From IMG/VR virus record IMGVR_UViG_3300030430_005103, positions 1 to 57,728 of that record: a stretch of DNA of 57,728 bases; one strand, 5' to 3'. Origin of the DNA: a virus. Taxonomy: Duplodnaviria > Caudoviricetes. Made by a program: the position numbers and the translations under genes. How positions within the stretch are numbered: the first letter of the stretch is position 1; each line of letters starts with the position of its first letter. Shown here piece after piece: positions 10,732 through 55,543 of the stretch. Under the pieces are notes generated by a model that was not told the DNA's origin, did no database searches, and was given only the letters and a program-made list of their open reading frames with translations.

Positions 10732-10732
10732 A

Positions 10733-29505: not shown

Positions 29506-29524
29506 CCATAAATTCGCTAAAAGA

Positions 29525-29547
29525 AAATAGTTTTTATAAACTATTTA
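29525..29547 (+). promoter_or_regulatory. AACTATTTA motif embedded in a 9-bp inverted repeat upstream of gp25
   Basis: AAATAGTTT-TTAT-AAACTATTT, followed by AAGGAG SD and GTG start. Confidence 0.55.
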
Positions 29548-29566
29548 TGGATAAGGAGAATCTTTA

Positions 29567-29989: not shown

Positions 29990-30007
29990 CGAGGGATTTT
30001 TAAAAAA

Positions 30008-31804
30008 ATGGCAGAGAAAAAACCAGCAATAAATTATACAAGCCGAGATTTTACAACAATAAAATCAGACCTAGTTGATTATGCTAGAAGATACTATCCT
30101 GAGACATTTAGAGATTTTTCTGTAAACTCTTTTGGTTCTCTGATGTTGGACACTGTTTCATATGTTGGTGACATTCTTTCGTTTTATCTAGATTATCAAG
30201 TTAATGAAACTTTTTTATCAACTGCGTCAGAGTATGACAATATATTAAAAATATCCAGACAGTTGGGGCTTAAGCCAGATTTATCACCAGCATCATTTGG
30301 TGTTTTGACACTTTTTGTATTAATCCCGGCAGGTACAAATGGCGCCCCTAACTATGATTACGCCCCCACTTTAAAAGCCGGAAGTAAATTTTCGACTACT
30401 GATGGAAAATTATACACTTTGCTAGAAGACGTTAATTTTAAAGACATTGAACAAAATGAGATAGTGCCTGGTCAAATCAACAACCAAACCTCCGTGCCAA
30501 TTTCATACGTCATTAGGGCTAGAGGTCAAGCTGTTTCTGGAGAATTATTAACTCGTACCATAGAGGTAGGAGCTTATGAAAGATTCAGAAAGGTGGAATT
30601 ACCCGGCACAAATATAACAGAGGTAGTTTCAGTGGTAGACACTGAAGGTAATCCATATTTTGAAGTAGATTATTTAACTCAAAATATTATTTATGTTCCG
30701 ATACAAAATACTGGCCCAGACCGAGCAACTGTAGCAAACATTTTAAAACCTATAGCTGTACCCAGAAGATACACTGTAACGAAAGAAAGAGGTTCTCTGT
30801 TTCTACAGTTTGGTTTTGGTACTAATGAAGATAGCGAAGAGGTACTGGACCCATCAAAAGTGTTGGTTAATCAGCACGGCAAAAAATATATTTCTGATGA
30901 CTCATTTGATCCAGCAGCGCTGGTTAAAAGTGATAGTCTGGGTATTAGTCCTTCAAATACTACATTAACTATTATTTATAGGGTTAACACAACAGAAAAT
31001 ACGAATACGTCCGCAAATAGTATTATAAATGTCAGAGATAGTATTATGAGCTTTCAAAATGAATTAGAATTAGACATTACACTGGTTCAAAACACAAAAG
31101 ACAGTTTGGAGGTTATAAATGAAACAGCATTTGTGGGCTCTGCTCCCTTGCCAAACTCTGATGAACTAAAACAAAGGGCTTTTGGTGTTTATTCAATGCA
31201 GAACAGAATAGTGACTCAAGAGGATTTAGTAACGGCTGCCTATAATATGCCCAGCTCTTTTGGGTCAATATCTAAAGCTTCAGCACAACAAGATTCTGAT
31301 TCTTTCAATCAAAGAAATATAAACTTATATGTAATGGCTCGTGGCGCCGATGGAAAGCTTCAAAAAGCCAATCAAACTATAAAAAATAATTTAAAATCTC
31401 ACATCTCTAGATATAAAATGATTAATGACTCAATTGATATATTGGACGCAAACATTATAAATCTTTCGTTATTTTATACAATAGTTGCCTATCCAGATGT
31501 TGATAAATTTAGAGCCATAGATACATCGAAGAGAGATTTGAGTGTGTTTTTTGCGAGACGTAGAGATTATGAAATCGGAGAGTCCTTTTCGATAACAGAT
31601 ATTTTTAGTGTATTAAAAAACTCTGCGCTAGTTTTAGATGTGGTTGAAGTAAGCGTGTTAACAAAAACCGGGCCGCTACATGCTGATACAGGTTTTATTG
31701 CCGAGAATAACTTATCCGCCGATGGTCGATTCATTACTTGTCCATCAGATTCTATTTTTGAAATTAAATTTCCGAATAATGATATTATAGGGACAATTAA
31801 ATAA
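30008..31804 (+). CDS. Baseplate wedge subunit, T4 gp6/J-like
   Basis: YTSRDF..IK..L, DF, SYVGDILSFYLD...NETFL.TA, LQFG.G, QNRIVT.ED. Confidence 0.9.
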   Translation: MAEKKPAINYTSRDFTTIKSDLVDYARRYYPETFRDFSVNSFGSLMLDTVSYVGDILSFYLDYQVNETFLSTASEYDNILKISRQLGLKPDLSPASFGVLTLFVLIPAGTNGAPNYDYAPTLKAGSKFSTTDGKLYTLLEDVNFKDIEQNEIVPGQINNQTSVPISYVIRARGQAVSGELLTRTIEVGAYERFRKVELPGTNITEVVSVVDTEGNPYFEVDYLTQNIIYVPIQNTGPDRATVANILKPIAVPRRYTVTKERGSLFLQFGFGTNEDSEEVLDPSKVLVNQHGKKYISDDSFDPAALVKSDSLGISPSNTTLTIIYRVNTTENTNTSANSIINVRDSIMSFQNELELDITLVQNTKDSLEVINETAFVGSAPLPNSDELKQRAFGVYSMQNRIVTQEDLVTAAYNMPSSFGSISKASAQQDSDSFNQRNINLYVMARGADGKLQKANQTIKNNLKSHISRYKMINDSIDILDANIINLSLFYTIVAYPDVDKFRAIDTSKRDLSVFFARRRDYEIGESFSITDIFSVLKNSALVLDVVEVSVLTKTGPLHADTGFIAENNLSADGRFITCPSDSIFEIKFPNNDIIGTIK

Positions 31805-33657
31805 TGGGAATTAAAAGATATTACGCTACAAAAGATAATACGATTACAAACGCTTTTAAATCAAGTTTGCAAACCCGCGGCGTTAGCGGAAACATGGGCC
31901 AGTCTGACATCCTAGAGGTTTTTAGTATTTACGCTCAGGTTAGCTCAAGTACTGGGTTATCCTCAGAACTATCGCGAGTACTAATTGAGTTTGACACAGC
32001 GGCAATAAATTCAGATAGATCGACGGGCGTTATCCCGGCATCTGGTAGTGTTAACTTCTTTTTAAAAATGTATGACGCAGAACATACACAAACTACACCA
32101 AAAAATTACACCCTGTTGGTTCAGCCAATATCTCAATCTTGGAATGAAGGTCTTGGTCTTGACATGGAAGAATACTCAGATGAAGATGCGTCAAACTATA
32201 TTTCTGCTTCTAGCGGTGTTCCTTGGGCAGATATTACCGGTAGAGCTACTGCCTCAATTGAAACCGTAGCGAAGGAATTGCTTACTGCGGGGACGTTTAC
32301 ATTGACAGACGCTGCCGGAATCTCAACAACATATAAGTTTGTGACAGGTGTGAATGTATCGGCAAACACTACAGCGTATACTCCTGGTACCACTATCAAT
32401 ATTGGTATCGACGGTATGGCCGGGGGTGATGCGGGAGCCACCGCAGATCAAACTATTGCACGGATTAATGCCGGCACAAATATCGGCTTTACCGCATCAA
32501 AGACAGGTAATAATGTTCTTGTAACCCAGAATACTGCTGGTACCGTAGGCAACAAAACGAACACACAGGACTCAGGCATGGGCTCTTTCGTTGTAAATAG
32601 TTTCACCGGCGGAACTGATGTTGAAGGTGGCAGCTATGTTGATAGCGCAGAATATACTTTTACTCAATCTTTTGACACAGGTTTTGAAGATCTAGAAATA
32701 GATGTAAGTCACTTAGTTGAAGATTGGATTAAGGGACCTAGTAGTAGCGGGTTAAACAACTTTGGTTTTGGAGTTCGCCTGACGGGTTCAGATGAAACGG
32801 CAACAGATTCGTTTTACACTAAAATGTTTTTCGCTCGTGGTTCACAATTTTTTCATAAGCGTCCAGTCATTGAGGCAAGGTTTGACGACACAAAAAAAGA
32901 TAATCGCGGTGATTTCTTTTTAAGTTCATCATTAGTACCAGCATCTGACAACTTAATGAATCTTTATCTTTACAATGTAGTCAGAGGTCAACTAACAGAC
33001 ATTCCAGCAGTTGGGACAGGAAATATATTAGTTAGTATATATAGCGGCAGTACTGAACCATCTGGAAGTAAACTTTTTCTACCTGAAGGCGGTGGTGTGG
33101 TGGCCTCCGGAGATCTTAATATAACAGGATCTCATGTAGAAACCGGTATATACTCGTGTTCATTTGCTTATGCTTCATCGAGCATAACAACAATATTTGA
33201 TGTATGGCACAGTGCTTCAGTAGAATACCATACTGGCTCGGCCATTAAAGTACAGACATTCAATAGTCAAAATTATAACTTCGATCAGAGATACGTGTCT
33301 AAAGTCACAAACTTACGACCGACGTATAGTAGAGATGAAAAGGTCAGATTTAGACTTTACACTCGTCAAAAAGATTGGTCTCCGACTATTTATACAGTAG
33401 CGAATAACGAAATAGAAACAAGTATAGTTGACAATGCTTACTATCGCTTTACTAGAGTGAGCGACGATCTAGATGTTATTCCATTTGGGACTGGTTCCCT
33501 AAACCACACTCGACTATCTTATGATACGAGTGGTAGCTACTTTGATTTAGAAATGAACTTGTTCGATACTGATACTGTATACGAATTGTCTTTTTCTTAC
33601 TTAATTAATGGCAGCTACGTTGAGCAACCAGAAAGGTTTAGGTTTAGAGTAGAGTAA
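31804..33657 (+). CDS. Virion protein with DNRLRE/CBM96-like domain and an inserted module
   Basis: KDNTI...N.G..DILEV...SRVLIEFD...SQSWNEG pattern; Ser/Thr-rich. Confidence 0.6.
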   Translation: MGIKRYYATKDNTITNAFKSSLQTRGVSGNMGQSDILEVFSIYAQVSSSTGLSSELSRVLIEFDTAAINSDRSTGVIPASGSVNFFLKMYDAEHTQTTPKNYTLLVQPISQSWNEGLGLDMEEYSDEDASNYISASSGVPWADITGRATASIETVAKELLTAGTFTLTDAAGISTTYKFVTGVNVSANTTAYTPGTTINIGIDGMAGGDAGATADQTIARINAGTNIGFTASKTGNNVLVTQNTAGTVGNKTNTQDSGMGSFVVNSFTGGTDVEGGSYVDSAEYTFTQSFDTGFEDLEIDVSHLVEDWIKGPSSSGLNNFGFGVRLTGSDETATDSFYTKMFFARGSQFFHKRPVIEARFDDTKKDNRGDFFLSSSLVPASDNLMNLYLYNVVRGQLTDIPAVGTGNILVSIYSGSTEPSGSKLFLPEGGGVVASGDLNITGSHVETGIYSCSFAYASSSITTIFDVWHSASVEYHTGSAIKVQTFNSQNYNFDQRYVSKVTNLRPTYSRDEKVRFRLYTRQKDWSPTIYTVANNEIETSIVDNAYYRFTRVSDDLDVIPFGTGSLNHTRLSYDTSGSYFDLEMNLFDTDTVYELSFSYLINGSYVEQPERFRFRVE

Positions 33658-33658
33658 T

Positions 33659-36600
33659 ATGTCCTTAAAAGATTTATTTAAAGAACAAAATTATAAATAT
33701 CTCGGAGGCACCGCGGTTAATTCTTTAACCTCTAGTGGCGTGGAATCAGCAGAATTTATAGAAAAGTTTATAGAGGACAGGGATAGGTTTGTCCCGCTCA
33801 TAGATTATTCCAAGCCGGCCAATTTTGCTAGATTTGGATCTGCAGAAAAATATTACTATGATTCAATAAAAAGAACTTACGAAACCTATCCTTATGATGG
33901 CTCTAAAAAAGAAAAAATACTTTGGGAACTTTCTTCATCTAATCTAGATTTATATCTTTTTGAGAATGGATATCCAAGAACCACTGGTTACGCAGTTTTC
34001 TCTAACACTAGTGTCACCGCTACAGCTACCTCAACAAATTATAGTATATGGGGCTCTTATGGCGCTGCCGGTACTGGAACTTATGAATATGTTTCTTTCA
34101 ATGGAGGTCCTCATCCCGGCCAGGGAAATAAAATATATATTGATCCAGACACCGGTGAAGCACACTATAGAAAAAATGCTAACATATATGATTTATCAAA
34201 GAATAGAGAGTGTAACCTAAAGATAGGTGGAAACGATGGAAATACAGTAGAGTTTTGGCTTAAAAAAGCCGCTTTTGATACTGACGCTACCCAAACAGAG
34301 GTTATCTTTGATATCTTCACCACAAGTTCAATTTCTTCAAGCGCTGATTACGGAAGACTTACGGTTGAGATGTCTGGCCATGGCGCAGATACAAACACTT
34401 TATCTCCTTTTTATGTGACTTATATGTCTGGTACCAACGGCATATCAAAACAAAACATTGGCGCCTCTTTGACGACCGCTTCTATTGCTGATGACAATTG
34501 GCATCATTACTCACTTAGATTTAAAAACACCGATTCAAATGTCTCAGTTGACCTTTTTGTTGACGGTAAATTTAATCATAATGTCACAACAGGTACAACT
34601 GTAGATTATGTTAGTGGAACAATTGTTGGAACAATTGGTGCTTTAGCTACAAACCCATCGGGTACCACTATCCAACCACAGGCCGCCAAAGGCTGGGGTA
34701 AGCTTTCTGGCTCTCTAGATGAGTTTAGATTTTGGAAAGTCTGGAGAAATTCAAGCCAAATCCAAACTAGATGGTTTGATCAAGTCGGCGGGGGTACCAA
34801 CACTGATGAGGCAAATACCCATTTAGGTCTTTACTATAAATTTAATGAAGGTATCACAGAGAAAATAGAAACAGATTCAAAAGTGTTAGATTACTCTGGA
34901 AGAATTAGTAATGGCAGTTGGGTTGGATATTCAAGTGTCTATTCCAGAGAAACCGGTTCTGCGATTAATGAATCTGGGTTGACATCTTATACAGCAACAG
35001 AGTTTCAAGATCCGATATTATATTCATTTCATCCACAAGTTTTTTCTTTTATGGAAGAAAAAAGAAAAGAAGGTAAAGAGTATGATTATACAAATCCATC
35101 AACAATTTATTATTCTCTACCATCATGGATTTTAGAAGAGCATGAAACCAGCAAATCTGATGGCGATGGTATAATATCAAATTCTTTATGGAATCTAACT
35201 CAAATAATAAGTAGCTATTTTGACAATGTGTCAAACATGATGGACTCGGTGCCTCAACTAAGCCAGACTGATTATTTTAGTGGCTCTTTTAAACCAACTC
35301 CTTTCATGAGTAGAATTTTGGAGTCAAAAGGCTTTATAGCGCCAGAGATATTTAATGCGATAGAAGCTTTAGAATATTTTGAAAACAGAGATAACAACAG
35401 CATTTACACTGAAAAAATTTCAAATGTTAAAAATATAATTTATAAAAACATCTATAATAATTTGACTTTTATTAATAAATCAAAGGGGACTGAAAAATCA
35501 CTTAGAAACCTTATTCGTTGTTTCGGTATAGATGATCAGATATATAAATTAAATTATTATGCCAATAGTGTTGATTTTATTTTAGAAGACAACCACCGTT
35601 CCATCTCAAGCAAACTGAAACTAATTAATTTTAATACAATTAACAATTCAAATGCCTCAGTTTATCAATACTCTAGTAGCTTAAATCCTAACAGTAGGAC
35701 ATTTATATCAGCTAGTAAGAATTTTGATCCTGCCAGTTCAGTTGAGACTGGTTTGCCGTTTTCTGTTGAAGCTAATGTAGTATTTCCAATTAGAGTCGAT
35801 GAATCAAAGTACAATACCTTAGCACAGGGCGCCACTTCGCGGACATATAATTATCCCTTATTTATTACTTCCAGTCTTTTTGGTATGCACACGGCCATAG
35901 ACACAGAACCAGAAAGTACAACTTGGAATTCCAACGACTATGCTAACTTTGTTGTTAAAGCAATTAAGTCTAAAACTTTCTCTAATAAAGCAAAATTCGT
36001 ATTAACAGGGACATTGGGAGGTTTTATCCCAGAGTTGTCCTCTTCATACGTTGATGAAGTGTATAATGATTCAAATTGGAGTTTTTTGGTTTCTTTATAT
36101 TCAAAAGCATATCCGAATGCTACCCAAGTAGACGGCACTTCGACATCCGATTACGTTGTTCAATTTACTGGTATTCAAAAAGTCTTAGAACAAACAATAA
36201 ATGAGTTTACGGTAACAGGCACAATCACAGCAAATGAGGCAACTAAGTTCTTAGCCTCTCCAAAAAGAACATTTGTTGGAGCACATAGAACTAACTTTAC
36301 TGGTGCTTTGCTTCAGCAGTCAGATATAAAAGTAAACAACTTTAGAGTTTGGCAAAATAAATTAACCAAAGAGGACTTAAGCTTACATGCTTCGGATCCA
36401 ACAAACTACAGCATTAAAAATCCGGAACAAAATGCTTTTCTATTTAATGAATCTTTAAATGAGGTTTTTATACCCAATAAAGAAACTTTGTTGCTACATT
36501 GGGATTTTTCCACTGTGACTGGCTCCGACTCCGCTGGAAATTTTATAGTTGAAGATCTAACTTCTGGTTCAAATGATCAAATATCTAGGTATGGTTATTT

Positions 36601-39600
36601 AAACAACATTTCCAATAAACAGTTTACTGGTCTTGGTTTTGAATTTGCTGCTAATAGCACTGATGTTATATTTAAAGATGATTTTATTACTTCTAAGCAA
36701 AATTTACCAGAGACGATAAGTAACGAAGACACTGTTAAAGTGCTAACTAATGATGATATATATTATTATAGAGATATTCGACCAACGTTTTTTGACTTAT
36801 ATATAGAAAAGAGTCCATATCAAAACATTTCTGAGGAGATGTTAAAATTTATGTCAACGGTGGTTAGCTTTGCTGATCTTTTTGGTCGACCAATAGATAG
36901 ATATCGTAGTGAATATAAAGCACTTAACACATTAAGACAATTGTTCTTTGAAAGGATGGATACTCCAAATATTGAAAAATACATGGAGTACTTTAAGTGG
37001 TTTGACTTAGCGGTAACTGCAATGATTCAAAAACTAGCTCCAATGTCTTCTGGGTTAGATGAAAGGCCGCTAAGAAATATTATCGAATCTCATATTTTAG
37101 AGAGAAACAAATACGAGTCAAAATTTCCAACTTATGAGTTTAAGCAAAGTGACCCAGAGGGTTCTCTGTTTGGTATTAGTGAACTTACGTATCCATGGAA
37201 AGAGGGTCACGCCCCAGTAGGGGTTACAGTTGATGATGAACACCAAGATGATAACTGTGTTTGGTTTAAAGAGAGGGTAGAAAGAGGCACTGTTGTAACC
37301 AGTGGAGATTCAGCTGTTGATTCTGATAGACAAGAAATACTTAATGTTATCAACAATCAAAGTAACGCGACACTTCCAAACCTAAGTGGGTCAAGTGGAA
37401 CATATCAAGGATCTACATATGCTTTGCGCAGGTTTGCCCGACCTTATAAGGCCACTGCGCAAAATCAACCCCAAATACATGGCGGTGGTAATGGATATCA
37501 AAATAAGAAAGTTGGTTTTTGGGATTCAATTAGAAAGCGACCCACACCATCCTTACCCGGTGAAGGCGGCCTAATCTCAATTGAACCACCTGATTCAAAT
37601 CTTGAATCCTTTAAAAAGTGCGAGGACAACTTAGAATTAAATAAGGGCAAAAGAAAGTTTAAATTCTCTGCCGGGGTAGCTATTGACGGTGAAGAAAACT
37701 TTAGTGAGATATTTAAAGGTGATCTGGTATTTCCATTTAGTTTTTATAGTTCCTCAGTCACAAGCAATCCGGCCATGGCCGATCTAGCTGATTTTCAAGC
37801 AAATCTAGCTATAACCAACCTACATCACGACAGTTACGGTCCCTTTAAAGACGTTCCAATGCAGGGGCCATTTACAGAAAAATATGTAGGCGGCCGCTCA
37901 TATCGTCATGTAATGACAAACTTTACAGTAGACAATGAGCAGCCTGAAGGTGAAGGTGAAAGATTAGAGGGCTGGCGCCTGACTGCTTCAGCTGATGCTC
38001 TGGATTTGGTTAATGTTTCTCCGCATAATCCAAAATCTGTTTATTTCAGAGAGGAGTACGCAAAGCGACCGGTAAACATTAAAAATATTCAGCAAACAAC
38101 GGGCGCTGCTGAAATAGACTCAGAAACTTCATTCGCTCAAGGCACCGACGCAGCCGCAGTAACAAAGATAGGAAATTACACAAATACTTACGAAATTGTA
38201 ATGACTAATGGTCGTTCAATGAATAATCGCTATTTGGCAGAATCTGATGGACTCTTACCCACTAGCGGCACTGAGTCAACTACGGTTTCTGATATTGTTG
38301 ATTTTACGTTGCCTCGCCGTGACTTAACTGGATCTAACAAGTCGATCATTGTAAATCGTTTCTCAGCTCCAGGTGATCCCTCTACGATGGCCGAAGGTAT
38401 GCTAGATGTAGCTGCCGCAGAATTTAGTGTTTACAATGCGCTGCCTTTTAGAAATTTGTCTGTGCGACAACCCTTACAAGAGCTTTTAACTGATCACACA
38501 AATCAGTTTGGATTATTTAGTGACGCAAGAACTGTAGCAGACTTTGCCTTGTATAATGAATTTCATGATAGACAAGAAGCTTACCCTGGCGGTTCTTCCT
38601 CTATCCACGATCCAGATGATGGAAGTGGAGCCTCTTATCAAGGCACAGGCTCATTTCATAAAGTTAATAGAAACGCAAGAAAACAAATATTGTTTAGTGG
38701 ATCGACTGATGTTGCTGATGACAATTATTTAACAGTTACAAAAAATGATAATTTCTTTGTCCAGCACCAGATACCACAGACAGATGTGCAATATGCTTGG
38801 ATTACAGCGAGTCTAGTCAACAACTACACTGGTTCTGCGCTTTATGGATTTGAACAACCAGATTTTAGTAACGCTAGTCTTGCGTCTACCGATTTGACTT
38901 TTATTGAAAAAGGGGATCATGTTGCATACACTCGACGGTTTCAAGGTACATCTGAGACTTTCCCCAATAAGATACTGCTCTGGGGGGCCGATGAAAATTT
39001 CCTTCCAGCTACGGCATCCTTTGGTATACAAACGGCTCTTCGTGAGTCTACATACTTTGTTGACTTTGTTGGATTAAATTCCATTATTAATGAGCCAGTT
39101 TCTTCTAGTGAAAACACTTTAGGGTATCCAAGTCTCACTTTTACTCCCGTTGAAGATCTTGGCGTAGGCGATGAGTACCTTAGAGGAAATTTTAACTATA
39201 TCAATCCGGATACCATTGACGGGCGGTTCGTGGGCGGCGCCTGGATCGAGGGATTCATGATGGGAGGCGTCTTTCGAGTTGCTGGCGGACCTGCCCTGTT
39301 AAATGCGATTAATTTAAATAGAAATGGTCCATATGGTGGGGCTAACTGGAAACTTCATAGAAAGAGTGGCCACCCTGTGGTACGCACTCACAGAAAAGAA
39401 AATAGGTTGAGCTTCTTAAACTTCTCTCAAGTGGTTGGAAGTAATGGTCAAACAAATACTTTAACATCAATAGATTCTGTTATTGAGCCGCCCATAACGA
39501 GTAAATATAAGCAGTTAACCCATCTCGTCACTTATAGCCCCGCTCCCATTACAGTCGATAACCCGGGCGAATTAGTTAAAATTAATCACTCGTATATGAA

Positions 39601-43378: not shown

Positions 43379-43415
43379 TCGCGAACCATGGCAGAGGAGG
43401 TTCTAATTATTAATA

Positions 43416-47500: not shown

Positions 47501-47986
47501 GATGATACCACAAATTTTCAAGATCCTCCTTTACAGGTTCTCTGCTTGTCGCTAAAAGATCCAGCGGGTACAGTGTTTAAAAATTACATGAGCAATGGTC
47601 AGGGGTATATAGCCAACAGTAGGATTAACCCTGCTAGACTCTCTCAATTTTGGTTTATACATCAAAACATAGTTCGCGTTGAATATTTAAGCGGTTTTGA
47701 ATCATATCAAGTTGAAATACCGGTTAAAAGCACTTCTAGCAGCCCATACTCAGTGCCAGAAGAAGGTATTTATTCAGAGCAAATTACAAATTTAAAACGT
47801 CCAAAATGGAGGGTATTAAATAATCAAGTCATCACTACTCTCAAATCTGCCGGGGGGAGCGGCGACCCTCGGAGTTTAATCTGTCGACTTGTTCCATACG
47901 TATCAAACTATATTAATAAAAACTTAGTCAATGAATTTAAAATGCCATTAATGCATTCGTATTTTAAGTTGACATTCGAGAAATGA
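44546..47986 (+). CDS. Large virion structural protein with a His-cluster motif
   Basis: TAATG coupling; contains WAGGVHIHNGRFMAGGYHSNQPH. Confidence 0.6.
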   Translation: MISKKSFTERLLPNVFVKSVTLDSELKPGGYNNANKKFSAYGIAPTDSNLQFTGMVPDDTMMSTVVLSSKFIESSTFKDDITQLLESNSSTSFVTYVHQITSREVYEDFLETLYTPTLLYQSEGLLTDFAAKVLGTVYENSLDDGIVTQMRQFGEVYDTINQGETVGSGTQILPKQILSDGTVINELITEFVFEGIPKNVDFLAYISFTAIQITMHLSDYIDSGADYDDSMMDTLSEVYGGFALISSVSKEIVLLDKNLQNQAIQFRIAEFPSNANVSALSQFGNPGEVWAGGVHIHNGRFMAGGYHSNQPHPFLDYSIVKNSRFVDNRIKQKVQQNITNITKTLEHLYSFISPYKSSAINKNLTKQKTKFISDLYLSQSPTGEVYGSFVVDKSSVILNKSPFSFLLDNAKSLDEYFPGANLYDQVAAFFLPENALLRCQVYKDDELLGTLAGSQQQTTSQSSAKDTSLGNSNTISFTLVNERNIILPKKIDNGFAVEKNDYDKFSFRHVMADPLLTTNKYSVVVEYYDFGSSYVKAALEVLNLMKGYLSYVLKYAKTTPTDNSFVGFDNTTGNIKQQTIQNLIDNGLAVEKEDGAIYPTGFDSLPFDILLIILYNPKNFSRRDFGGNFIAEFRSYLLNLADLSTTNIQKLLILDNFLNLMISNLTNILDTFGVKPTTVSNPSDYSEAVTTSVSTSQQKIISLKSDVQEIKIHDHGYDFTGLIDSNSAAADYKGRRSTGGNIGLVEITVADYELAVQQLARQVLSIQPDQSFTNSIGGTFECINITKQQTISDSLYSYLCGPGLDIEAFKSFVHLPGINKDSEYFTHQTILTAISKFKSEIFESQGGYYATIPADLSEMLTADLVAILNKDGTNLFDLTTDPESASSESPSIVQEGFQITTVSEDFSEELLNPSDNSSNFLGDVKGNKFKVGPEFTLQTVASNINKNKINLLTALFSRKSMTKLGPGESLKSFVLPMSKNNFDPFDDTTNFQDPPLQVLCLSLKDPAGTVFKNYMSNGQGYIANSRINPARLSQFWFIHQNIVRVEYLSGFESYQVEIPVKSTSSSPYSVPEEGIYSEQITNLKRPKWRVLNNQVITTLKSAGGSGDPRSLICRLVPYVSNYINKNLVNEFKMPLMHSYFKLTFEK

Positions 47987-48004
47987 GCTTTTTTGTTCAA
48001 ATTT

Positions 48005-48013
48005 AACTATTTA
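48005..48013 (+). promoter_or_regulatory. AACTATTTA putative late-promoter motif
   Basis: In a short intergenic gap directly before AAGGAG SD and ATG 48025. Confidence 0.55.
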
Positions 48014-48024
48014 AAGGAGAGAAC

Positions 48025-48225
48025 ATGCAAGAATTTGCCACAACAGAATATAATATATTTTTACAAGCAATCTTAGATGGAACTTCTAATCAAGCAGGTT
48101 CGGCGTTTGGAACCACCGAAGATGATCAACTAGCTAATTTGGTTCTTCAGTATGGTGTTTCAGATGATCAGGCGGCACAAATTATTATCGACTACAATGA
48201 AACAATAGAAAATAATCAAAACTAA
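48025..48225 (+). CDS. Small acidic protein (66 aa)
   Basis: Strong SD AAGGAG and its own upstream motif; contains no K, R or H. Confidence 0.75.
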   Translation: MQEFATTEYNIFLQAILDGTSNQAGSAFGTTEDDQLANLVLQYGVSDDQAAQIIIDYNETIENNQN

Positions 48226-48241
48226 TAGTCAAAACTATTTT
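48224..48241 (+). promoter_or_regulatory. AACTATTT motif within a short inverted repeat
   Basis: AATAGT-CAAA-ACTATT, followed by AAGGGTG SD and ATG 48254. Confidence 0.45.
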
Positions 48242-48253
48242 AAGGGTGAATAA

Positions 48254-51200
48254 ATGGCTGGTGAAGAAGAAATACTAAAAAGCATACAATACAATAATTT
48301 TATTTATCTTTTTAATGATCCATCCGATGTGGTGTTGGCTAAAAAACGCCCTAATAATACGGATCCGCCATCGCTTAAATATAGCGGTGAAGATTTTTAT
48401 CCACTCGAAGACTACCGGCGGGCAAACAGACTTTTAAAAGAACTTGCACCAACAACAACGCTCAGTACAACTCAGATTACACCTGAATCTTTAGGTTTAC
48501 AGAACACCCAGGTCGGCTCCTTAGAATCCAATCCCATTATTTTTCGGGATTTCGATGGCCAAGGCGACTTTCCAGTATTATTTTCAGCAGATGAAAACAA
48601 GGATCTAAAGCGCAACACTGATTTAGGCAATAGTTTTTTGAATTTCCGCGCAGCAAATATAACCAAAGGAACCGCAAGAGTAAATTATAAACGTACCAAT
48701 GACTTTGGACATAATCCACTAAAAAAACATAAACTTCAGGTAAGCACACAAAATGGACTATCAATATACGCTGTTTCTCACGAATTTAAAACAATGCGTG
48801 CGTCCATCGACGCCTTGACAGGCCAACAATCTTATCAGCTAATACCTGAAGATCTAGGCAACGTTGCGAGCCAAACCGATCTTGATGACGCCATGGCAGC
48901 TGCTAACAAATCAAATGGAAATTTCATTGTTAATCTAAGTAGTCCATCAGGCCCATTTTTATATAACGTACTGGATGCTTTTGGCGACGGCACTGAGGGT
49001 GACGAACAAGCAAACGCCCTTAAAACAATGATTGGAATACCGTCTGATGACCCACTGGACAATTCTGGTGTACTTAAACTAGAACCTTATACTAAGGTTG
49101 CTGGTAGTCTTACCGACGGCACCATTTATAGTGAATTTACTTTTACACAAAAATTTTATTTTGGTATCAACATACCTACCCCTCCCGCCATCGACGCGGC
49201 CTCGCCCGGACCACAAGTACTTGCTAAAAGATATTTATCCTATATATCAACCCCGCCGAATGAGGCTACTGCATACGATAATACTTTAATACAGACTAAA
49301 TATGAAAAACCATATAACGATCAATTCAAAATTATTGACAATTCCTGTACGAAAATTGGAGTGCCTTATGATTCACATTCGATCATAATAGATAAAGTTA
49401 ATTTAAATTCTTTCGGCGTTAGAAATACCGCACCGACATATGAAAGTTTTTATAATTATTTTGACCCTCAATATGAACCGGTGGTTTTATCAATCATAAA
49501 CCAAGGAATAATAAATGAAAACTCTCTCCCCAGTGTTTATGATTTTGTTTATCTTCCTTTACAAGAGGAATTTATGAGGACTTTTTTAGATCTACCAAAT
49601 GATGGTATACCTATTAAAGATACAAATATTTCTAATCTAAACACTTACTTAGATAGCTTATCTACATTTTATGGAGATTATATAGCCGGTTCAGATATTG
49701 CGCAAGATGATGAAGACCCCGCAGTATTGCCACCGAGTGCTGTTGGCTCTATAACACCACGAGATCTTGGTTTTTATATCGATCCTTATCTTGATCAGCC
49801 GGCAACTCAAGACTTGGATAACATTTTTCTTACACCGAAATCTGAGTTTTTAAAAAAAATTGAAGTAGATTCTAACGGGGGATTTGCAGACCAGCTTATA
49901 GAGTCAAAGAAAAATCATATCCCAAAGTGGATAGAAGAAATAAAATCAGGAATTTATTTTTGTGAAAAAACAATGCCAACCTTCAACGAAGCTCTAGAGT
50001 TTACAAATAGATTTCCTTTTGCCTCAACAATAAATATACCTCAAGAACAGCGCGGCCCAATAGCTAAATTATTTTCAGAATATGGTCTTTTAGATGCCAT
50101 TAACACTCACGCAGCCTCATTGGTGGTGCCAAATGAGTATTTGACTAGGGATCCCAACCAAATTACGCCGGGCAGTCGTGTGATAAAAACATATGCTAAA
50201 TTTTATGGTGGTATGATTAATGGCTATACTCCACGAAGATTTAATATGTTCAATGGTGTTAAATTAAAAACATTTAGAATGAATTTTTCTAGATTTGGGG
50301 AAACTGATTTTTTGGAGGGAGCTGACGCAACGGACAACAGATCAGATCTATATTTAGATAACTTTGAAAATGTAGGTATAGAAACGCCGAAAAATGTGTT
50401 TATTTACTCTGGTGAGGAAAGCACTTCTTCCACCACTGCATTTCTTAACATTTTAAGTATTTTGAAAAGCCAACAATTAAAAACCAAATTATATAACTTT
50501 TTTGAAGCTGGTGGAATGCGCACACCAAGGGATATACAAAATGGGAAATTTGCGCATCAAGAGACTTTAATGTATGAGATAGCTAAATATCAAATTGTTG
50601 AAGATCAAGAACAGTTTATTCAAAGTATATTTTTACCAATAGTTAATCAAGACAGTCTAAAATACGTAGATACACAAGTAGTTCCATACAAAAATTATTT
50701 TTATAAAATATTTGCCCACAAGGTTATTGTCGGAACAAGGTACAAACCAGATGATATAGAATTTTTTGAAGATCAAGTGGAAACAGACAATGAAACTGTA
50801 ATTCAGTTTCAGAACCTTAAAAAACCAGAGTTTCTTGGCTCTGGCTTTAGTGGCAAACTCCCGGAAAATAATCTGATCTACGAACACCAGTATCTAGTCG
50901 AACCTTATTTGCAGTTTGTGAGAGTGCCTTATTACAATACGCCTATGGTTAACGTACAAACTGACGCTATTAATTTTACTAGAATAGAAGATTTACCCCC
51001 AACACCACCAGAAGTTCAAGTAATACCATACAGAAATGTCAAAAATAAAATTTTATTTTTGTTAAATAATTCAACTGGTGAGTTTAAATCAACCGTGATT
51101 CCTATACTTGACACAGATTTAGATATATTTGATTTATGCGCTGTTAGTCAAGGAGTTAACCTTCCAAGTAAAGACTATTTAACTGAATTACAATTTAAGT

Positions 51201-51763
51201 CTGATGATATACCTAGAACTTATACAATATTTAGAATGGAAAAAAGACCGTCTTCTTATAAAGAATTTTTTGAAGATGATGACGCAATACAGTTTTCACT
51301 TTCTGACGGAGAGGCTTCTTTTGTTGACAATATAATTCCAAATAAAGATTATTATTACTGTTTTAGAACTACTGATGTACATGGTAAAATTTCTAATCCA
51401 ACAATTGTGTATAAAGTTATAATTATTTCTGAAATAAACAGTGCGCCTTATGTTAAAATAGAAACGTTTGATCCTCGTGATGAAGCCGGTCGAGCTAACG
51501 ATGAAAAACTATCGACCACAAAGACGTTTCAGAAGTATTTATTGTTGGGATTGAATAGATCGCAAAATACAGTTAATTATCCAAATATGGAATTTAATGA
51601 AGCGGGAGGAGCCCAAGGTGCTTATGATAGCCAACCGGTTGATATAGATTCAGCTGTGTTTGGTAAAAAATATAAATTAAGAATTACATCAAAGCAAACT
51701 GGAAGAAAAATAGATATAAATATAGATTTCAAAAATCCAAAAAATATCATAAATAATGTATAA
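48254..51763 (+). CDS. Large virion protein with C-terminal FN3-like domains
   Basis: YVDTQV...Y.YKI and FVDNIIPNKDYYYCFR..D.HG.ISNP FN3-like motifs. Confidence 0.6.
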   Translation: MAGEEEILKSIQYNNFIYLFNDPSDVVLAKKRPNNTDPPSLKYSGEDFYPLEDYRRANRLLKELAPTTTLSTTQITPESLGLQNTQVGSLESNPIIFRDFDGQGDFPVLFSADENKDLKRNTDLGNSFLNFRAANITKGTARVNYKRTNDFGHNPLKKHKLQVSTQNGLSIYAVSHEFKTMRASIDALTGQQSYQLIPEDLGNVASQTDLDDAMAAANKSNGNFIVNLSSPSGPFLYNVLDAFGDGTEGDEQANALKTMIGIPSDDPLDNSGVLKLEPYTKVAGSLTDGTIYSEFTFTQKFYFGINIPTPPAIDAASPGPQVLAKRYLSYISTPPNEATAYDNTLIQTKYEKPYNDQFKIIDNSCTKIGVPYDSHSIIIDKVNLNSFGVRNTAPTYESFYNYFDPQYEPVVLSIINQGIINENSLPSVYDFVYLPLQEEFMRTFLDLPNDGIPIKDTNISNLNTYLDSLSTFYGDYIAGSDIAQDDEDPAVLPPSAVGSITPRDLGFYIDPYLDQPATQDLDNIFLTPKSEFLKKIEVDSNGGFADQLIESKKNHIPKWIEEIKSGIYFCEKTMPTFNEALEFTNRFPFASTINIPQEQRGPIAKLFSEYGLLDAINTHAASLVVPNEYLTRDPNQITPGSRVIKTYAKFYGGMINGYTPRRFNMFNGVKLKTFRMNFSRFGETDFLEGADATDNRSDLYLDNFENVGIETPKNVFIYSGEESTSSTTAFLNILSILKSQQLKTKLYNFFEAGGMRTPRDIQNGKFAHQETLMYEIAKYQIVEDQEQFIQSIFLPIVNQDSLKYVDTQVVPYKNYFYKIFAHKVIVGTRYKPDDIEFFEDQVETDNETVIQFQNLKKPEFLGSGFSGKLPENNLIYEHQYLVEPYLQFVRVPYYNTPMVNVQTDAINFTRIEDLPPTPPEVQVIPYRNVKNKILFLLNNSTGEFKSTVIPILDTDLDIFDLCAVSQGVNLPSKDYLTELQFKSDDIPRTYTIFRMEKRPSSYKEFFEDDDAIQFSLSDGEASFVDNIIPNKDYYYCFRTTDVHGKISNPTIVYKVIIISEINSAPYVKIETFDPRDEAGRANDEKLSTTKTFQKYLLLGLNRSQNTVNYPNMEFNEAGGAQGAYDSQPVDIDSAVFGKKYKLRITSKQTGRKIDINIDFKNPKNIINNV

Positions 51764-51764
51764 T

Positions 51765-51772
51765 ACTATTTA
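51765..51772 (+). promoter_or_regulatory. ACTATTTA putative late-promoter motif
   Basis: Immediately after the stop codon, ahead of GAGGAG SD and ATG 51793. Confidence 0.55.
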
Positions 51773-51792
51773 GTTAAAAGAGGAGATTATAA

Positions 51793-52737
51793 ATGGCTTT
51801 CTTAGACAATTCAGGTGACATTATATTAGACGCTGTGTTAACGGACACAGGGCGCCTAAGACTGGCTCGTGGAGACGGTTCATTCAAAATTACAAAATTC
51901 GCTTTCGGAGACGACGAAATCAACTATGCTAGCTATAATGGCCAACATTTATCCGGATCAGCTTATTATGATTTAGAAATATTACAAACACCAATTTTTG
52001 AGGCGTTTACAAACAACACTTCTACAATGAAGTCAAAACTAATAAGCTTAACAAACAATAATCTTCTTTTTCTACCTATAATAAAACAAAATACGTTATT
52101 GTCCAATACTCAATTACCAGCTAGCAATGATGCGCTCGCCGCAGGCAAGTACACTGTTTTTGTTAATGATGACACAAAAGACGCTCTTCTTGCTGCAAAA
52201 AATACAACGCTCGCAAGTCTTTCTGGGTTCATTAACGGATATTCAAAGCCAGGAAACAATTACATTCGTGTGGATCAAGGATTAGACACAACTAAGATAT
52301 CTTCAGATTTCTCTATTGATCCGGAGTTGAAAGAAAGACAATATCTGGTAGAAGTTGATTCTAGATTCTTATTTCTATATGACTTACAAGGCAGTCAGAA
52401 CGCACAAGAGTCTTTTATAGATGATGATTTAATCGCAACTTATTACTTTACGCAGAACATTGGTTCTTATATTTCAGACTTAACACCAGGAGAAAACCCA
52501 GACACTGGAGACGAAAATATCTTAGGACCAAGAGGAACTAGATTTCAATTTGGACTACAAGCAGCAACTGATGTTAAAACTTCAGATTATTTATTTAATA
52601 CCATAGGAGTTGACGTATCAGAAGGTAGCCCTAGCAAAAGCTTCTCTGCCATAGATACTAGTATTAGAATCACAGGTGTTACAACGGGATACAGAGTAGA
52701 TATACCGGTAAGGGTATTAAAAGAACAAAATACTTAA
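51793..52737 (+). CDS. Baseplate/tail-associated structural protein
   Basis: DAVLTDTGR..LA.G...ITKFAFGD resembles tail-collar/fibre-attachment N-termini. Confidence 0.6.
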   Translation: MAFLDNSGDIILDAVLTDTGRLRLARGDGSFKITKFAFGDDEINYASYNGQHLSGSAYYDLEILQTPIFEAFTNNTSTMKSKLISLTNNNLLFLPIIKQNTLLSNTQLPASNDALAAGKYTVFVNDDTKDALLAAKNTTLASLSGFINGYSKPGNNYIRVDQGLDTTKISSDFSIDPELKERQYLVEVDSRFLFLYDLQGSQNAQESFIDDDLIATYYFTQNIGSYISDLTPGENPDTGDENILGPRGTRFQFGLQAATDVKTSDYLFNTIGVDVSEGSPSKSFSAIDTSIRITGVTTGYRVDIPVRVLKEQNT

Positions 52738-52755
52738 TAACAAAAGGAAAAATAA

Positions 52756-54336
52756 ATGGCTACTACATTTAAAACTTTATTAAACAGCGATATCGCAAAT
52801 ACAAGAACACTTCTTCATGAGGCAATTCCAATCACAGGAACAATCATTTCAGGTACCTACGAGGACGAGAACATTAAGACGTTCGCTCATGGTATGTTCG
52901 AGGCAGTTTTTGATTATCCCTACTTAAGTTCATCAGCAAATCATATTTTTGATATTTCTGCCGGATATGCTTCTGACAGCATATTATCTGGAGCGGCCAA
53001 CACCCAAGGTAAGAAAAAAATGAACATATATAATCAACACGCTCAGGTGTTGGTTGGCTACGATGTTAGTGGAAATATTCAAAATTTTGACAGAGATGGC
53101 AACACAGGCACTACTGGTGATCAAATGAAAGAGTGTTTCTTTATTAATTTTTCTAGGCTTTTAACAAAGGATGAAATAAAAAAAGATTCATTCAGATTAG
53201 GGATGTTTGCCTCTTCTAGCGCAGTTAATGGTATAGTTGATGGCGGCGCCGCACTAACCACAGGCGTTAGAAATCAGCTAGAAGTCATTGGAGATTATGG
53301 CGCAGCGACAGAATATAAAGTTAATTCTCCTGCTGGAGAATTTGGATTGCTTTATAGTAGTTCTGCAACTCCACGAAACACCAACAATAATCCTCCAATT
53401 GGACACATTTATTACCAAGCTGGAATCGCAGTTATTACGGCATCTTTCTTTTCAGGTGCTTTCGGTGATCCGTCTAGCACAGCCGATAGAACCCAGTCTA
53501 GCGGGGAACTTGGAGTACAAGCATCCAGAACGGACGCAGTTTCTCTTGCGGCTGGCCCAGTAACCGCCGATGAGACAATTAGTATAACTTTCCCAGCTGG
53601 TTATCCCACCCTTGCTGAGACCACGGTTCAATTTGTATTCAAAAGCGCTGGCGATGTAAATACGGGAACACCAGATATCAATCAGGTTTTTGTAAGCCAC
53701 GGAGGTAGTGAGTCAGATAGCGCGACAAACTTTAGAAAAGCAATTAATGGTATAACCAATAATGATGGATCTGAAGATGTTAAATTTGGATCTAATCCGG
53801 CGTTTACTGATGGCAGCGGCTTTCAAATTCCAAACTTAACTGCGGCCGTAGGAAGCACCGCAGCGAAAGTTACGATTACTGCAGCCATCCCCGGTGGTAT
53901 TGGTGCCACTGGTAATAGCGTTGAATTATCAAAAACTGGTTCAGACATAACCATACTAAGTCCACTACAAAATGGTACTAACGCAGAACTGGCAGTAATG
54001 AATCGCTTGACCGGCTCAACGATTACTCAATTGGCAAATGGCTTTCGTTATAATTATGAAAATCTAGATTTTAATAATACGACAGAACTCAACTCAACCA
54101 TATATTTCTGTCGTGCTAATACTCAAGATTACAATTATAGTGCTAATCCAACTTACTTAGATGCGAGTGAGATTAGAGTTAAAAATAATAACCCCAAAGC
54201 CCAACCGGTTGCTTATATCACGACTGTTGGTCTTTACGGCTCTGATAATGAGCTTCTTGCTGTCGCAAAGTTATCAGAACCTTTAAAGAAATCACCTTCG
54301 AATGAAATTACTTTGAGGGTCAGACTAGACTACTAA
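52756..54336 (+). CDS. Baseplate/tail-associated structural protein with an inserted module
   Basis: C-terminal YITTVGLY..DNELLAVAKLSEP.KK...LD, paralogous to 54338. Confidence 0.65.
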   Translation: MATTFKTLLNSDIANTRTLLHEAIPITGTIISGTYEDENIKTFAHGMFEAVFDYPYLSSSANHIFDISAGYASDSILSGAANTQGKKKMNIYNQHAQVLVGYDVSGNIQNFDRDGNTGTTGDQMKECFFINFSRLLTKDEIKKDSFRLGMFASSSAVNGIVDGGAALTTGVRNQLEVIGDYGAATEYKVNSPAGEFGLLYSSSATPRNTNNNPPIGHIYYQAGIAVITASFFSGAFGDPSSTADRTQSSGELGVQASRTDAVSLAAGPVTADETISITFPAGYPTLAETTVQFVFKSAGDVNTGTPDINQVFVSHGGSESDSATNFRKAINGITNNDGSEDVKFGSNPAFTDGSGFQIPNLTAAVGSTAAKVTITAAIPGGIGATGNSVELSKTGSDITILSPLQNGTNAELAVMNRLTGSTITQLANGFRYNYENLDFNNTTELNSTIYFCRANTQDYNYSANPTYLDASEIRVKNNNPKAQPVAYITTVGLYGSDNELLAVAKLSEPLKKSPSNEITLRVRLDY

Positions 54337-54337
54337 A

Positions 54338-55543
54338 ATGCCTTTATACAAATTTGGTCCAAAAGATATCCTTAGAAATAGGATCAAAACCTATCCGAAC
54401 AATACCTTCTTTGTTCATAGCGCTAGTATATATTATGGCAACAGAAATCAGATTACGGGTGCCTTTGTAGATAATGTAACTCATGTTCCTACTGGTTTTG
54501 TTAGTCTGTATGAATTAAATATTGATAGAAAGTTTTCAGATCATACGTATGATCCAGATACAAACACCGGCAAAAAAACTAAAATATTTCCTTTCATATC
54601 AAAAGATTCGTCTTTTAATTCTTTCGCCACAATATCAACAAATAACTTTAATCAATTCCAATATGGTGATATAATAACAGGTAGTTATCCTTTTTCTGCT
54701 TCAATAACCAGAGAAACATTTGATGCTGGTACAAACCCAACCGGTTCACATCTGTTGGCTTTAAAGAACACTTTAAATTATTATAAATCTCTAAGCCCTA
54801 ATTATGCTTTTTCATCTTCATTAAGAGACTTAGCAACAGATGATGTTACACTGATTAGTATACCTAGCATTTTTTATGGTTCTAACATTCGTAAAAATTC
54901 TGTTAAACTAGATTTTTATATCTCTGGCACCTTGGTTGCTAGTTGTGAAGACTTGTATAGAAATGGAGAGCTGATACAAACTAGCGGCACTGCCCATGCG
55001 CAATCAAACGGCTCGGGATCTGTCGCCGGAGTAGTGCTTTATAACGAAGGTTTTGTGTTACTAACTGGAAGTTGGAGCTTAACTGAAGAAAATTATGATT
55101 TCGGACCAGCACCGAACCGCACCGGTCAATGGACTGATTTTGCGGCTGGGGCCAATGATGGCCTTTCTCCCGCTGATTTAACTTTATCAGCCAGCTTCGC
55201 TTTAAATTTTCAAGGTACGAATTATATTAATACTATGACTATGAATTGTGATGCTCCACTTGGAGAGTTAAACTACTCGCCAAATCCTACGTATATGACA
55301 TCTAGCTTGTATGGGGCGTTTTCAAGTAAAGAAGGTTATTTTCAAGATAATAAAATTGCGGTTAAAAATACAATTAGCTCTTCGTTTTACAACTATGAAG
55401 AAGATTTTAAACCACAGACATTTATAACAAAGATAGGCATATACGATAAAGATAAAAATTTGATAGCTATAGCCAATCTCGCGAAGCCAATTAAAAAAAC
55501 CGAAGATAGAGACTACACATTTAGATTAAAACTAGATATTTAA
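54338..55543 (+). CDS. Baseplate/tail-associated structural protein
   Basis: C-terminal FITKIGIYD.D.NLIAIANLAKP.KK...LD, paralogous to 52756. Confidence 0.65.
   Translation: MPLYKFGPKDILRNRIKTYPNNTFFVHSASIYYGNRNQITGAFVDNVTHVPTGFVSLYELNIDRKFSDHTYDPDTNTGKKTKIFPFISKDSSFNSFATISTNNFNQFQYGDIITGSYPFSASITRETFDAGTNPTGSHLLALKNTLNYYKSLSPNYAFSSSLRDLATDDVTLISIPSIFYGSNIRKNSVKLDFYISGTLVASCEDLYRNGELIQTSGTAHAQSNGSGSVAGVVLYNEGFVLLTGSWSLTEENYDFGPAPNRTGQWTDFAAGANDGLSPADLTLSASFALNFQGTNYINTMTMNCDAPLGELNYSPNPTYMTSSLYGAFSSKEGYFQDNKIAVKNTISSSFYNYEEDFKPQTFITKIGIYDKDKNLIAIANLAKPIKKTEDRDYTFRLKLDI

Follow-up and report, generated by a model that had tools for sequence, protein, structure and literature searches.

Results

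The window and its motif-carrying proteins

The window examined in this study comprises all 57,728 nucleotides of the virus record IMGVR_UViG_3300030430_005103, a 57.7-kb fragment whose complete relatives span 190–204 kb, and its source is an aquatic myovirus of roughly 190 kb. A contractile-tail baseplate module lies 3' of the late sigma factor gene (19874–20572, + strand; PHROG 234), with a gp25-like gene at 29567 and a gp6-like baseplate wedge gene (30008–31804, +; PHROG 219), and continues with large proteins that have no Pfam or PHROG family. Four plus-strand genes encode proteins rich in the tripeptide [ST][GAS][ST], namely a 617-aa baseplate-module protein directly 3' of the gp6-like gene (31804–33657), a giant baseplate/tail protein of 3239 aa that is the main carrier (33659–43378), a 526-aa protein (52756–54336) and a 401-aa protein (54338–55543), and none of the four matches a Pfam or PHROG family. 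On the 5' side, a glycosylation slot extends from a PD-(D/E)XK nuclease gene (5702–6505, +; Pfam 72 bits), its left marker, to the sigma factor gene, its right marker, and holds two family-4 glycosyltransferase genes, GT4a and GT4b, followed by an island of sugar genes. The tripeptide is enriched in a specific set of structural proteins, its sites are under selection, and across related phages it is gained and lost together with the island.

Enrichment was assessed against 500 composition-preserving shuffles of each protein. Pooled over the four proteins, 100 motifs are found against 39.8 expected (z 9.3), distributed as 57 against 22.4 in the 3239-aa protein (z 7.4), 18 against 8.1 in the 617-aa protein (z 3.5), 13 against 5.4 in the 526-aa protein (z 3.5) and 12 against 3.5 in the 401-aa protein (z 4.9). 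When the shuffles are confined to blocks of 40 or 20 residues, the expectation rises to 42.0 and 43.5, respectively, with z 9.7 in each case, so that neither local composition nor Ser/Thr-rich patches explain the excess. By comparison, the gp6-like protein, which serves as an internal negative control, contains 1 motif against 3.5 expected, the 1837-aa protein contains 5 against 7.5, the enzyme open reading frames (ORFs) of the window contain 0 or 1 each, and the same shuffle test reveals no enrichment in the 1146-, 1169- and 314-aa proteins. The enrichment is confined to four or five of about 13 structural proteins, the possible fifth target being a weakly enriched 376-aa protein (43416–44546, +; 4 against 1.0, z 3.0). 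An initial annotation of this DNA had reported abundant motifs in the four proteins and few in gp6, the 1837-aa protein and the enzymes; its counts all hold, and the shuffles single out exactly the four proteins that it had named.

The signal depends on the order of the residues as well as on their identity. In the four proteins the narrower form [ST][GA][ST] occurs 75 times against 23.5 expected (z 10.9), whereas the permuted forms [GA][ST][ST] (31 against 23.5) and [ST][ST][GA] (28 against 23.5) stay at expectation, indicating that residue order matters. Comparison of all 20 residues at the middle position reveals an excess only for Gly (45 against 12.4), Ala (30 against 11.1) and, weakly, Ser (25 against 15.7), while Thr is depleted (6 against 13.6). 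A hydrophobic residue precedes the motif at 54 of the 100 sites against 12.3 expected, in agreement with the initial annotation that it usually does so, and follows it at 48 against 12.4; both flanks are hydrophobic at 29 sites against 3.9 (z 13). If His is also counted before the motif, the numbers are 34 against 7.1 (z 10.3) in the 3239-aa protein and 9 against 1.2 (z 7.6) in the 401-aa protein.

Two other sequons lack such a signal in the four proteins. The N-x-S/T sequon is found 64 times against 58.1 expected (z 0.9), and the general O-glycosylation sequon of Bacteroidota, D-[S/T]-[A/I/L/V/M/T], is found in this form 15 times against 19.3. The 100 motif sites, spaced by a median of 30 residues, comprise 95 distinct 9-mers and 100 distinct 27-mers, and Tandem Repeats Finder detects no tandem repeat in 31804–55543, which bears out the earlier remark that the motifs use varied codons and are not DNA repeats.

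The motif is conserved and under selection in related phages

Two sets of relatives were used, a first set of 20 syntenic viral contigs at 40–80% identity and a set of 342 related viral contigs confirmed by profile search; seven relatives were compared over 48–74 kb each. Locus counts refer to the best 80 of the 342, in which near-duplicates are included and which are therefore not independent. On this basis, the 401-aa homologue is enriched in 79 of the 80 loci, and the 526-aa homologue exceeds its expectation in 76 of the 77 loci holding one. Four or five orthologues, at 30–55% identity, are enriched in contigs G001, G005, G009, G012 and G020, and the pooled z in these five and the window ranges from 7.8 to 10.0 for the motif and from 8.7 to 13.1 for the hydrophobic-preceded form. 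Orthologues of the 3239-aa protein are enriched in G012 (56 against 28.1), G009 (46 against 21.1) and G005 (54 against 23.7), compared with 15 against 13.6 and 8 against 13.4 in the motif-poor G010 and G011. Similarly, the 617-aa orthologues are enriched in G001, G009, G012 and G020 and contain 0 motifs in G010 and G011. The 376-aa orthologues contain 5 motifs against 0.7 in G009 and 6 against 1.6 in G012.

Many motif sites share alignment columns across relatives, and these columns are conserved. In motif-rich genomes at 51–58% background identity, 66–90% of motif Ser/Thr are retained, compared with 48–70% of other Ser/Thr; the 617-aa and 3239-aa proteins follow the same pattern, the 617-aa protein keeping 62–86% of its motif Ser/Thr in motif-rich relatives. 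The proposal of the initial annotation that the motif is under selection is thus upheld. A logo of 368 sites from four mutually distant genomes reveals a hydrophobic residue at position –1 in 53% of sites (background 32%), where charged residues are depleted, followed by S56/T44, G46/S29/A25 and S75/T25 at the three motif positions and a hydrophobic residue at position +3 in 49%. The best reading of these sequence patterns and the genes of the slot, in our view a moderately probable one, is that the motif sites are acceptors for O-linked sugars in four or five distal baseplate/tail proteins.

Further motif-rich proteins occur outside the set found in the window. Two extra proteins between the 526-like and 401-like genes of loci L125/L126 (1177–2968) are both rich in the motif (308 aa, 18 against 8.3; 288 aa, 12 against 4.5). 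Proteins of 310–323 aa, located some 8 kb beyond the 401-like gene in G001 and G005, contain 4 hydrophobic-preceded motifs against 0.4–0.5, and a 1019-aa protein of G009, upstream of the PhoH region, contains 24 motifs against 11.3. The motif-rich proteins of G001, G005 and G009 indicate a target set that extends beyond the one seen in the window. The 526-aa and 401-aa proteins are themselves paralogous over their C-terminal ~110 residues, and the 526-aa copy of the window carries an insertion of about 150 residues that is missing from homologues of 345–400 aa.

In the remaining structural proteins (20856–31804 and 44546–52737 in the window), hydrophobic-preceded motifs are depleted in the window (3 against 10.1) and in G001 (1 against 9.2), G005 (3 against 9.4) and G012 (3 against 9.0), and no such depletion is seen in G009, G020, G010 and G011. 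This depletion, a weak signal, could be avoidance of the motif in proteins outside the target set.

A conserved glycosyltransferase pair precedes a variable sugar-gene island

The order nuclease, GT4a, GT4b, variable genes and sigma factor recurs in all relatives compared, the nuclease gene being the immediate neighbor of GT4a. GT4a (6513–7781, +; Pfam Glycos_transf_1, 43.5 bits) is a syntenic core gene of the clade. A search of 41 contigs recovers it in 26, at 55–82% identity, all five records that are at least 90% complete have it, and it is better conserved than the structural proteins. Homologues of the sigma factor are found in 31 of the 41 contigs and, in a further search, in 5 of 5. Among solved structures, GT4a is most similar to the BshA-type enzyme 5d00 (E 5.7e-8) and then to chlorovirus B736L (3oy2, E 6e-7). 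GT4b (7778–9040, +; Pfam Glycos_transf_1, 36 bits) is syntenic in eight relatives. The two genes share 4 bases where they meet and are neighbors in every case, among them the cultured Flavobacterium phage vB_FspM_immuto, Rhodothermus phage RM378 and Microcystis phage Mel-JY01. E-x7-E is present in both proteins throughout the aligned genomes.

A model of the GT4a–GT4b complex scores 0.83, compared with 0.19 for the best of three controls. This mark is reached by 58 of 80 solved complexes and by 2 of 110 mismatched pairs, counts that apply only roughly here, as our own alignments were used. Contacts agree to at least 97% across three runs, and the predicted local distance difference test (pLDDT) score of the partners is at least 89. 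The last seven residues of GT4a (416–422), its C-terminal tail, pair as a strand with residues 246–255 of GT4b in this model. Judged from the modeling, GT4a and GT4b probably form a heterodimer, and the result may partly reflect likeness to GT-B pairs that have already been solved.

Behind the pair, the island of the window starts with a 282-aa protein gene (9033–9881, +), with homologues in seven of nine loci compared and none in G010 and G016. The homologues of G005 and G020 are 539-aa forms fused to a Glycos_transf_2 domain (residues ~300–440), and the Atlas neighbors of the 282-aa protein are viral hypotheticals, some of them in clusters with Glycos_transf_1 in 18–65% of members. The next gene encodes a 287-aa protein (9868–10731, +) without a Pfam match, whose nearest Atlas cluster (0.95) is MptE-like in 55% of members; this language-model similarity provides a lead only towards a Maf/MptE-like nonulosonic-acid transferase. 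It is followed by a NeuB-family nonulosonic acid synthase (10697–11560, +; Pfam NeuB, 261 bits), a 250-aa protein (11557–12309, +) with a sub-threshold match to the MptE-like family (Maf, DUF115; PF01973, E 0.0098, 16.1 bits against a cut-off of 34.6), a NeuA/KdsB-like cytidine monophosphate (CMP)-sugar cytidylyltransferase (12299–12988, +; Pfam CTP_transf_3, 60.6 bits) and a second NeuB domain joined to a C-terminal cupin (12988–14457, +; Pfam NeuB, 156.9 bits, and Cupin_2). The presence of two NeuB synthases suggests two different nonulosonic or related acids. Further genes encode a protein with a nucleotidyltransferase-like N-terminus and an HAD phosphatase (15401–16498, +; Acid_phosphat_B/HAD matches, NTP_transf_3 weak) and an FkbM-type methyltransferase (16513–17217, +; Pfam Methyltransf_21, 30.4 bits).

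The islands of relatives differ in content. That of G012 encodes an RpiB-cytidylyltransferase, a PfkB kinase, an aldolase, a transaldolase, a GT1_2/GT9 protein and methyltransferases, and that of G020 encodes a DegT aminotransferase, an oxidoreductase, GT15- and GT11-like proteins, a radical-SAM enzyme and an epimerase. As far as gene families tell, the islands are sugar cassettes of differing chemistry, that of the window being composed of nonulosonic acid genes. A link between the motif and NeuB in particular is ruled out, since NeuB occurs in 1 of the 20 related contigs (G001) and 18 of the 20 are motif-rich.

Motif and island are gained and lost together

Among the 41 contigs searched, GT4a and the sigma factor gene are separated by 10.3–24.5 kb in 26 of 26 motif-rich contigs with both markers, and by 13–18 kb in the window, G001, G005, G009 and G012. 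The other 15 contigs, without GT4a, are fragments with a completeness of at most 56%. Five of these 15 hold the sigma factor gene without GT4a or the nuclease upstream; in one of the five, G048, the 21.5 kb upstream of the sigma factor gene are packed with 28 ORFs, 12 of which match island genes elsewhere, indicating that the island runs off the end of the contig.

A few relatives have no island at this site. In G010 and G016 the GT4a-to-sigma distance is about 3.2 kb, in G062 the GT4 pair is present with no room for an island, and in G011 the nuclease gene lies 869 nt from the sigma factor gene and the contig carries no glycosyltransferase. Pooled motif counts are 18 against 21.0 expected in G010 (z –0.7) and 13 against 18.6 in G011 (z –1.4), with none of the four protein families enriched; G062 (locus L124) shows no enrichment, and G016 has a weak motif signal (57 against 41.1, z 2.9). 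Equal enrichment in relatives without glycosyltransferases, an outcome that the initial annotation had regarded as telling against glycosylation, is not found: island-less relatives are not enriched, G016 being weakly so, and every island-bearing relative examined is enriched. The initial annotation had also proposed GT4 as an enzyme acting on the motif. This part fares less well, as the GT4 pair alone does not predict the motif and looks intact in the motif-poor G010, G062 and RM378; because the pair persists in such genomes, the motif does not simply follow the presence of glycosyltransferases.

The cultured phages, which are deeply diverged relatives, display the same association. In immuto, the nuclease and two glycosyltransferase genes are followed by an island with a GT2, aminotransferases, a methyltransferase, a mannosyltransferase and an epimerase, and its syntenic baseplate proteins and tail spikes are rich in the motif: the 401-like protein has 8 hydrophobic-preceded motifs against 1.4, and the annotated tail spikes (L128, 22125–27744) are extremely motif-rich, one of 1053 aa having 67 motifs against 34, with both flanks hydrophobic at 28 sites against 2.6, an excess that might reflect beta-helix repeats. 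Mel-JY01 combines the glycosyltransferase pair with two GT-A proteins and a methyltransferase, and is likewise motif-rich (12 against 3.8, 10 against 3.2, 12 against 3.1 and 8 against 2.8). In RM378 the pair is followed directly by ribonucleotide reductase, without an island, and the 401-like protein has 1 motif against 2.6 expected. A tblastn search of cultured phages with the 617-aa protein gave no match. The GT4a homologue of Mel-JY01 (L132, 13998–15489) is annotated as two coding sequences of 190 and 302 aa, which may stem from a frameshift, from an error in sequencing or from a gene that is truly split.

In a tree of 89 taxa, built on 776 columns of three non-target proteins (RuvC, primase and the 314-aa protein), G010, G011 and G062 form a clade with support 1.0. 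Its sister group is the motif-rich L104/L105 (0.96), it is nested several nodes deep (0.85–0.98), and G016 stands apart on a long branch. The nested position of the G010 clade among motif-rich lineages indicates that its motif-poor state is derived, that is, a secondary loss. In this clade 26–38% of motif Ser/Thr are retained, compared with 44–51% of other Ser/Thr, at unchanged background identity (49–56%); for the 617-aa protein, 24–28% of motif Ser/Thr are retained in G010/G011. The middle small residue is kept at 9–13 of 14–17 sites, and the Ser+Thr content of the proteome is 13.2% in G010 and 14.6% in the window. Some decay of the GT4 pair is conceivable in G010, in which 27 of 164 and 20 of 101 columns that are invariant elsewhere differ, the highest numbers of any genome, though the catalytic motifs are intact. 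In the 401-like proteins of L010, L011 and L124, acidic, Cys-containing insertions replace some of the motif-bearing loops.

This pattern of loss bears on a structural explanation, in which the motif would be an unmodified structural or physicochemical element of beta-rich proteins, for instance a strand cap or tight turn round a small residue, its hydroxyls serving solubility or packing, and a shift of habitat or host would have both lost the motif and made the island dispensable. The retention of the middle Gly/Ala/Ser where the flanking Ser/Thr are lost does suggest a structural core, the acidic insertions in proteins of the G010 clade hint at a different environment, and RM378 is a phage of a thermophile. 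An AlphaFold model of the 401-aa protein (pLDDT 78.4 from 76 sequences; a first model from 19 sequences reached 55.5) also places 9 of the 12 motifs at strand or helix ends and 3 in loops, so that no motif falls within an element. With baselines of 55% at transitions and 16% inside elements, the difference, calculated on secondary structure only, is not significant (p 0.14). However, the G010 clade keeps the fold while its motif Ser/Thr fall below other Ser/Thr, so that the hydroxyls are not needed for the fold. Moreover, only four or five of about 13 structural proteins are enriched, the others being depleted in four genomes (1–3 against 9.0–10.1), overall Ser+Thr content differs little between G010 and the window, and lineage-specific insertions and extra proteins are motif-rich too. 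We therefore regard a purely structural motif as unlikely, and it is harder to exclude than the DNA target considered below. Comparison with known structures yielded no relative of the 401-aa fold: neither model has a Foldseek match in the Protein Data Bank (PDB) at E ≤ 0.001, the best Z from VIA-align against 48,161 chains is 4.8, below the noise level stated for the tool, and a profile search of PDB sequences returned a single match at E 0.24.

The joint loss also speaks to the target of the island, which might instead glycosylate the DNA of the phage, the envelope of the host or a different virion protein, for example the capsid, its co-variation with the motif being a coincidence of shared ancestry. 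One report (PMC12619734) names glucosylation of DNA and conversion of the host serotype as the best-known roles of phage glycosyltransferases, the independent losses are few, and the GT4 pair persists in genomes without the motif. Yet motif and island are lost on the same branch, on which about 70% of the motif hydroxyls are erased in four unrelated families at once. None of 5 near-complete relatives (94–100% complete) has a match to PF00303, the thymidylate-synthase-like hydroxymethylase, and a study of immuto_2-6A DNA by liquid chromatography with ultraviolet detection and mass spectrometry records only the canonical dA, dC and dT together with fdPreQ1 (PMC10516641). Phage DNA is accordingly an unlikely target, and we hold a target other than the motif proteins to be improbable overall.

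A related question is which group would be attached. The motif Ser/Thr might carry another modification, such as phosphorylation, acylation, a phosphoglycosyl or a non-sugar group, or might be contact points that bind a glycan or decoration protein to whose production the island contributes. The comparative data show that pairs of hydroxyls are needed with the island and not what is attached to them, and the islands also hold methyltransferases, kinases, a radical-SAM enzyme and HAD phosphatases. But sugar activation and glycosyl transfer are the sole functions common to all islands examined, and neither protein kinases nor acyltransferases are among the families recognized in the window, which leaves an alternative of this kind with a small probability.

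Several observations weigh against the proposal that the motif sites are O-glycosylated. We infer from sequence that the attached group is a glycan; no enzyme could be tied to the motif, which is tracked by the island and not by the GT4 pair. The pair, with an intact E-x7-E, is present in the motif-poor G010, G062 and RM378, and the contig of G010 encodes a GT2 at another place, so that motif-poor phages are not free of glycosyltransferases. Only some three independent lineages lack the island (RM378, G016 and the G010 clade), and by our own arithmetic a perfect 3-versus-3 split of deep lineages would be expected by chance about once in 20 cases. The records are mostly fragments, and an island could lie elsewhere in G010, G016 or G062. 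A Gly-containing motif at strand ends, as in the AlphaFold model (9 of 12 against the 55% baseline), resembles ordinary turns. Avoidance of the motif throughout the proteome, finally, is ruled out, as non-structural proteins sit at expectation.

A proposed mechanism and its relation to known systems

If the motif sites are O-glycosylated, the acceptor would have the form hydrophobic-[S/T]-[G>S,A]-[S>T]-hydrophobic. Soluble enzymes of the phage, acting in the cytoplasm of the host late in infection, would add sugars one after another from nucleotide-activated donors to the Ser/Thr of the motif. The conserved GT4a–GT4b pair, probably a heterodimer, would be the invariant part of the machinery, and the variable island behind it would make and add lineage-specific sugars, which in this phage may be nonulosonic acids produced and attached via NeuB, the CMP-transferase and the Maf-like candidates. 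More tentatively, and short of calling it probable, we put forward that a large clade of aquatic myoviruses, with cultured members that infect Flavobacterium and Microcystis, possesses a sequon-directed protein O-glycosylation system in which a GT4 heterodimer core and a hypervariable island decorate the distal tail via a linear motif. The role of the motif could lie in shielding, as the initial annotation suggested, or in adsorption or antigenic variation.

By analogy, the phage system appears to work most like flagellin glycosylation islands, of which it is not a family member, as the acceptor differs and Maf is only a candidate. A review of these systems (PMC12645811) describes Maf-type flagellin islands as encoding soluble cytoplasmic enzymes for stepwise O-glycosylation before assembly, with genes near the substrate genes and strain-variable glycans, and reports that Maf enzymes have no known sequon. 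The sugars of these islands include nonulosonic acids of the pseudaminic, legionaminic or sialic-like kind. Like such islands, the window has NeuB-type synthases (261 and 157 bits), a CMP-activating enzyme (60.6 bits) and Maf/MptE-like candidates. Unlike them, it would use phage baseplate/tail acceptors, no flagellin family being found in the target proteins of the window, a linear motif stands out, and the invariant enzymes are the GT4 pair and not Maf, whose counterpart in the window amounts to 16.1 bits against a cut-off of 34.6 (11557–12309) and an Atlas cluster at 0.95 (9868–10731).

Modification of the virion by phage glycosyltransferases is described for mycobacteriophages, with glycans at the C-termini of capsid and tail-tube proteins (Freeman et al. 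2023, as cited in PMC12619734). The phages studied here resemble them in encoding glycosyltransferases proposed to act on their own virion. They differ in that their candidate sites are tripeptides scattered through the interior of baseplate/tail-tip protein sequences, in their large and hypervariable sugar island, and in their Gram-negative or cyanobacterial hosts; the window contains neither capsid nor tail-tube genes.

The adjacent GT4 genes also recall GtfA–GtfB, the O-GlcNAc transferase of serine-rich-repeat adhesins, in which GtfB is non-catalytic and both proteins carry DUF1975. Both systems comprise two adjacent GT-B/GT4-type proteins, here with a modeled complex (0.83 against 0.19), and a Ser acceptor, in the phage a candidate one, flanked by small residues. 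By comparison, E-x7-E is present in both phage proteins, the sites are dispersed in folded proteins without tandem Ser repeats, and a Pfam scan at E ≤ 0.01 listed no N-terminal domain such as DUF1975 in GT4a or GT4b. Chloroviruses encode cytoplasmic glycosyltransferases that modify virion proteins autonomously, and GT4a is weakly similar to B736L (3oy2, E 6e-7); their glycans are N-linked at atypical sites of the major capsid protein of a eukaryotic virus.

No description of the motif or of glycosylated baseplate proteins in this phage group was found within the literature searched. If the sites are glycosylated, virion glycosylation would be a core trait of abundant environmental phages (342 related contigs) and not a curiosity of mycobacteriophages, and the sequence rule would make glycosylated tail proteins predictable from metagenomes. 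The hypervariable islands would then be a phage counterpart of O-antigen or flagellin glycan diversity, giving each lineage its own 'glycan serotype', with consequences for adsorption, for resistance to proteases and defense proteins, and for the behavior of particles in water. The motif would also be the first linear acceptor motif to be defined for soluble, stepwise bacterial-type O-glycosylation, and would provide a short portable acceptor tag for soluble glycosyltransferases, of use in glyco-engineering. The idea is directly testable, since immuto and Mel-JY01 are in culture with the same layout and RM378 is a natural negative.

Other features of the window

The recently named 'moraphages', a lineage of large aquatic phages, have a similar core of PhoH, gp25, gp6, sigma factor and four glycosyltransferase orthogroups, as listed in their description (PMC12619734), which gives their tape measure as not identified. 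The window has a G+C content of about 35%, and its plus strand holds every long ORF except one. Of the minus-strand ORFs that reach 80 aa, only that of a trypsin-like peptidase (2029–2784, –; Trypsin_2, 52 bits) is not contained within a longer plus-strand one. ARAGORN detected no tRNA or tmRNA gene in the window (1–57728). A PhoH-like ATPase with an N-terminal PIN domain (2966–4279) is kept in relatives at 59–98%. Between PhoH and the nuclease, all relatives have a 226-aa protein (4614–5294 in the window; 38–82% identity). Its one match is to the Pfam ATLF domain, below threshold (17 bits against a cut-off of 27.4), and on this similarity it may be a small metallopeptidase-like protein.

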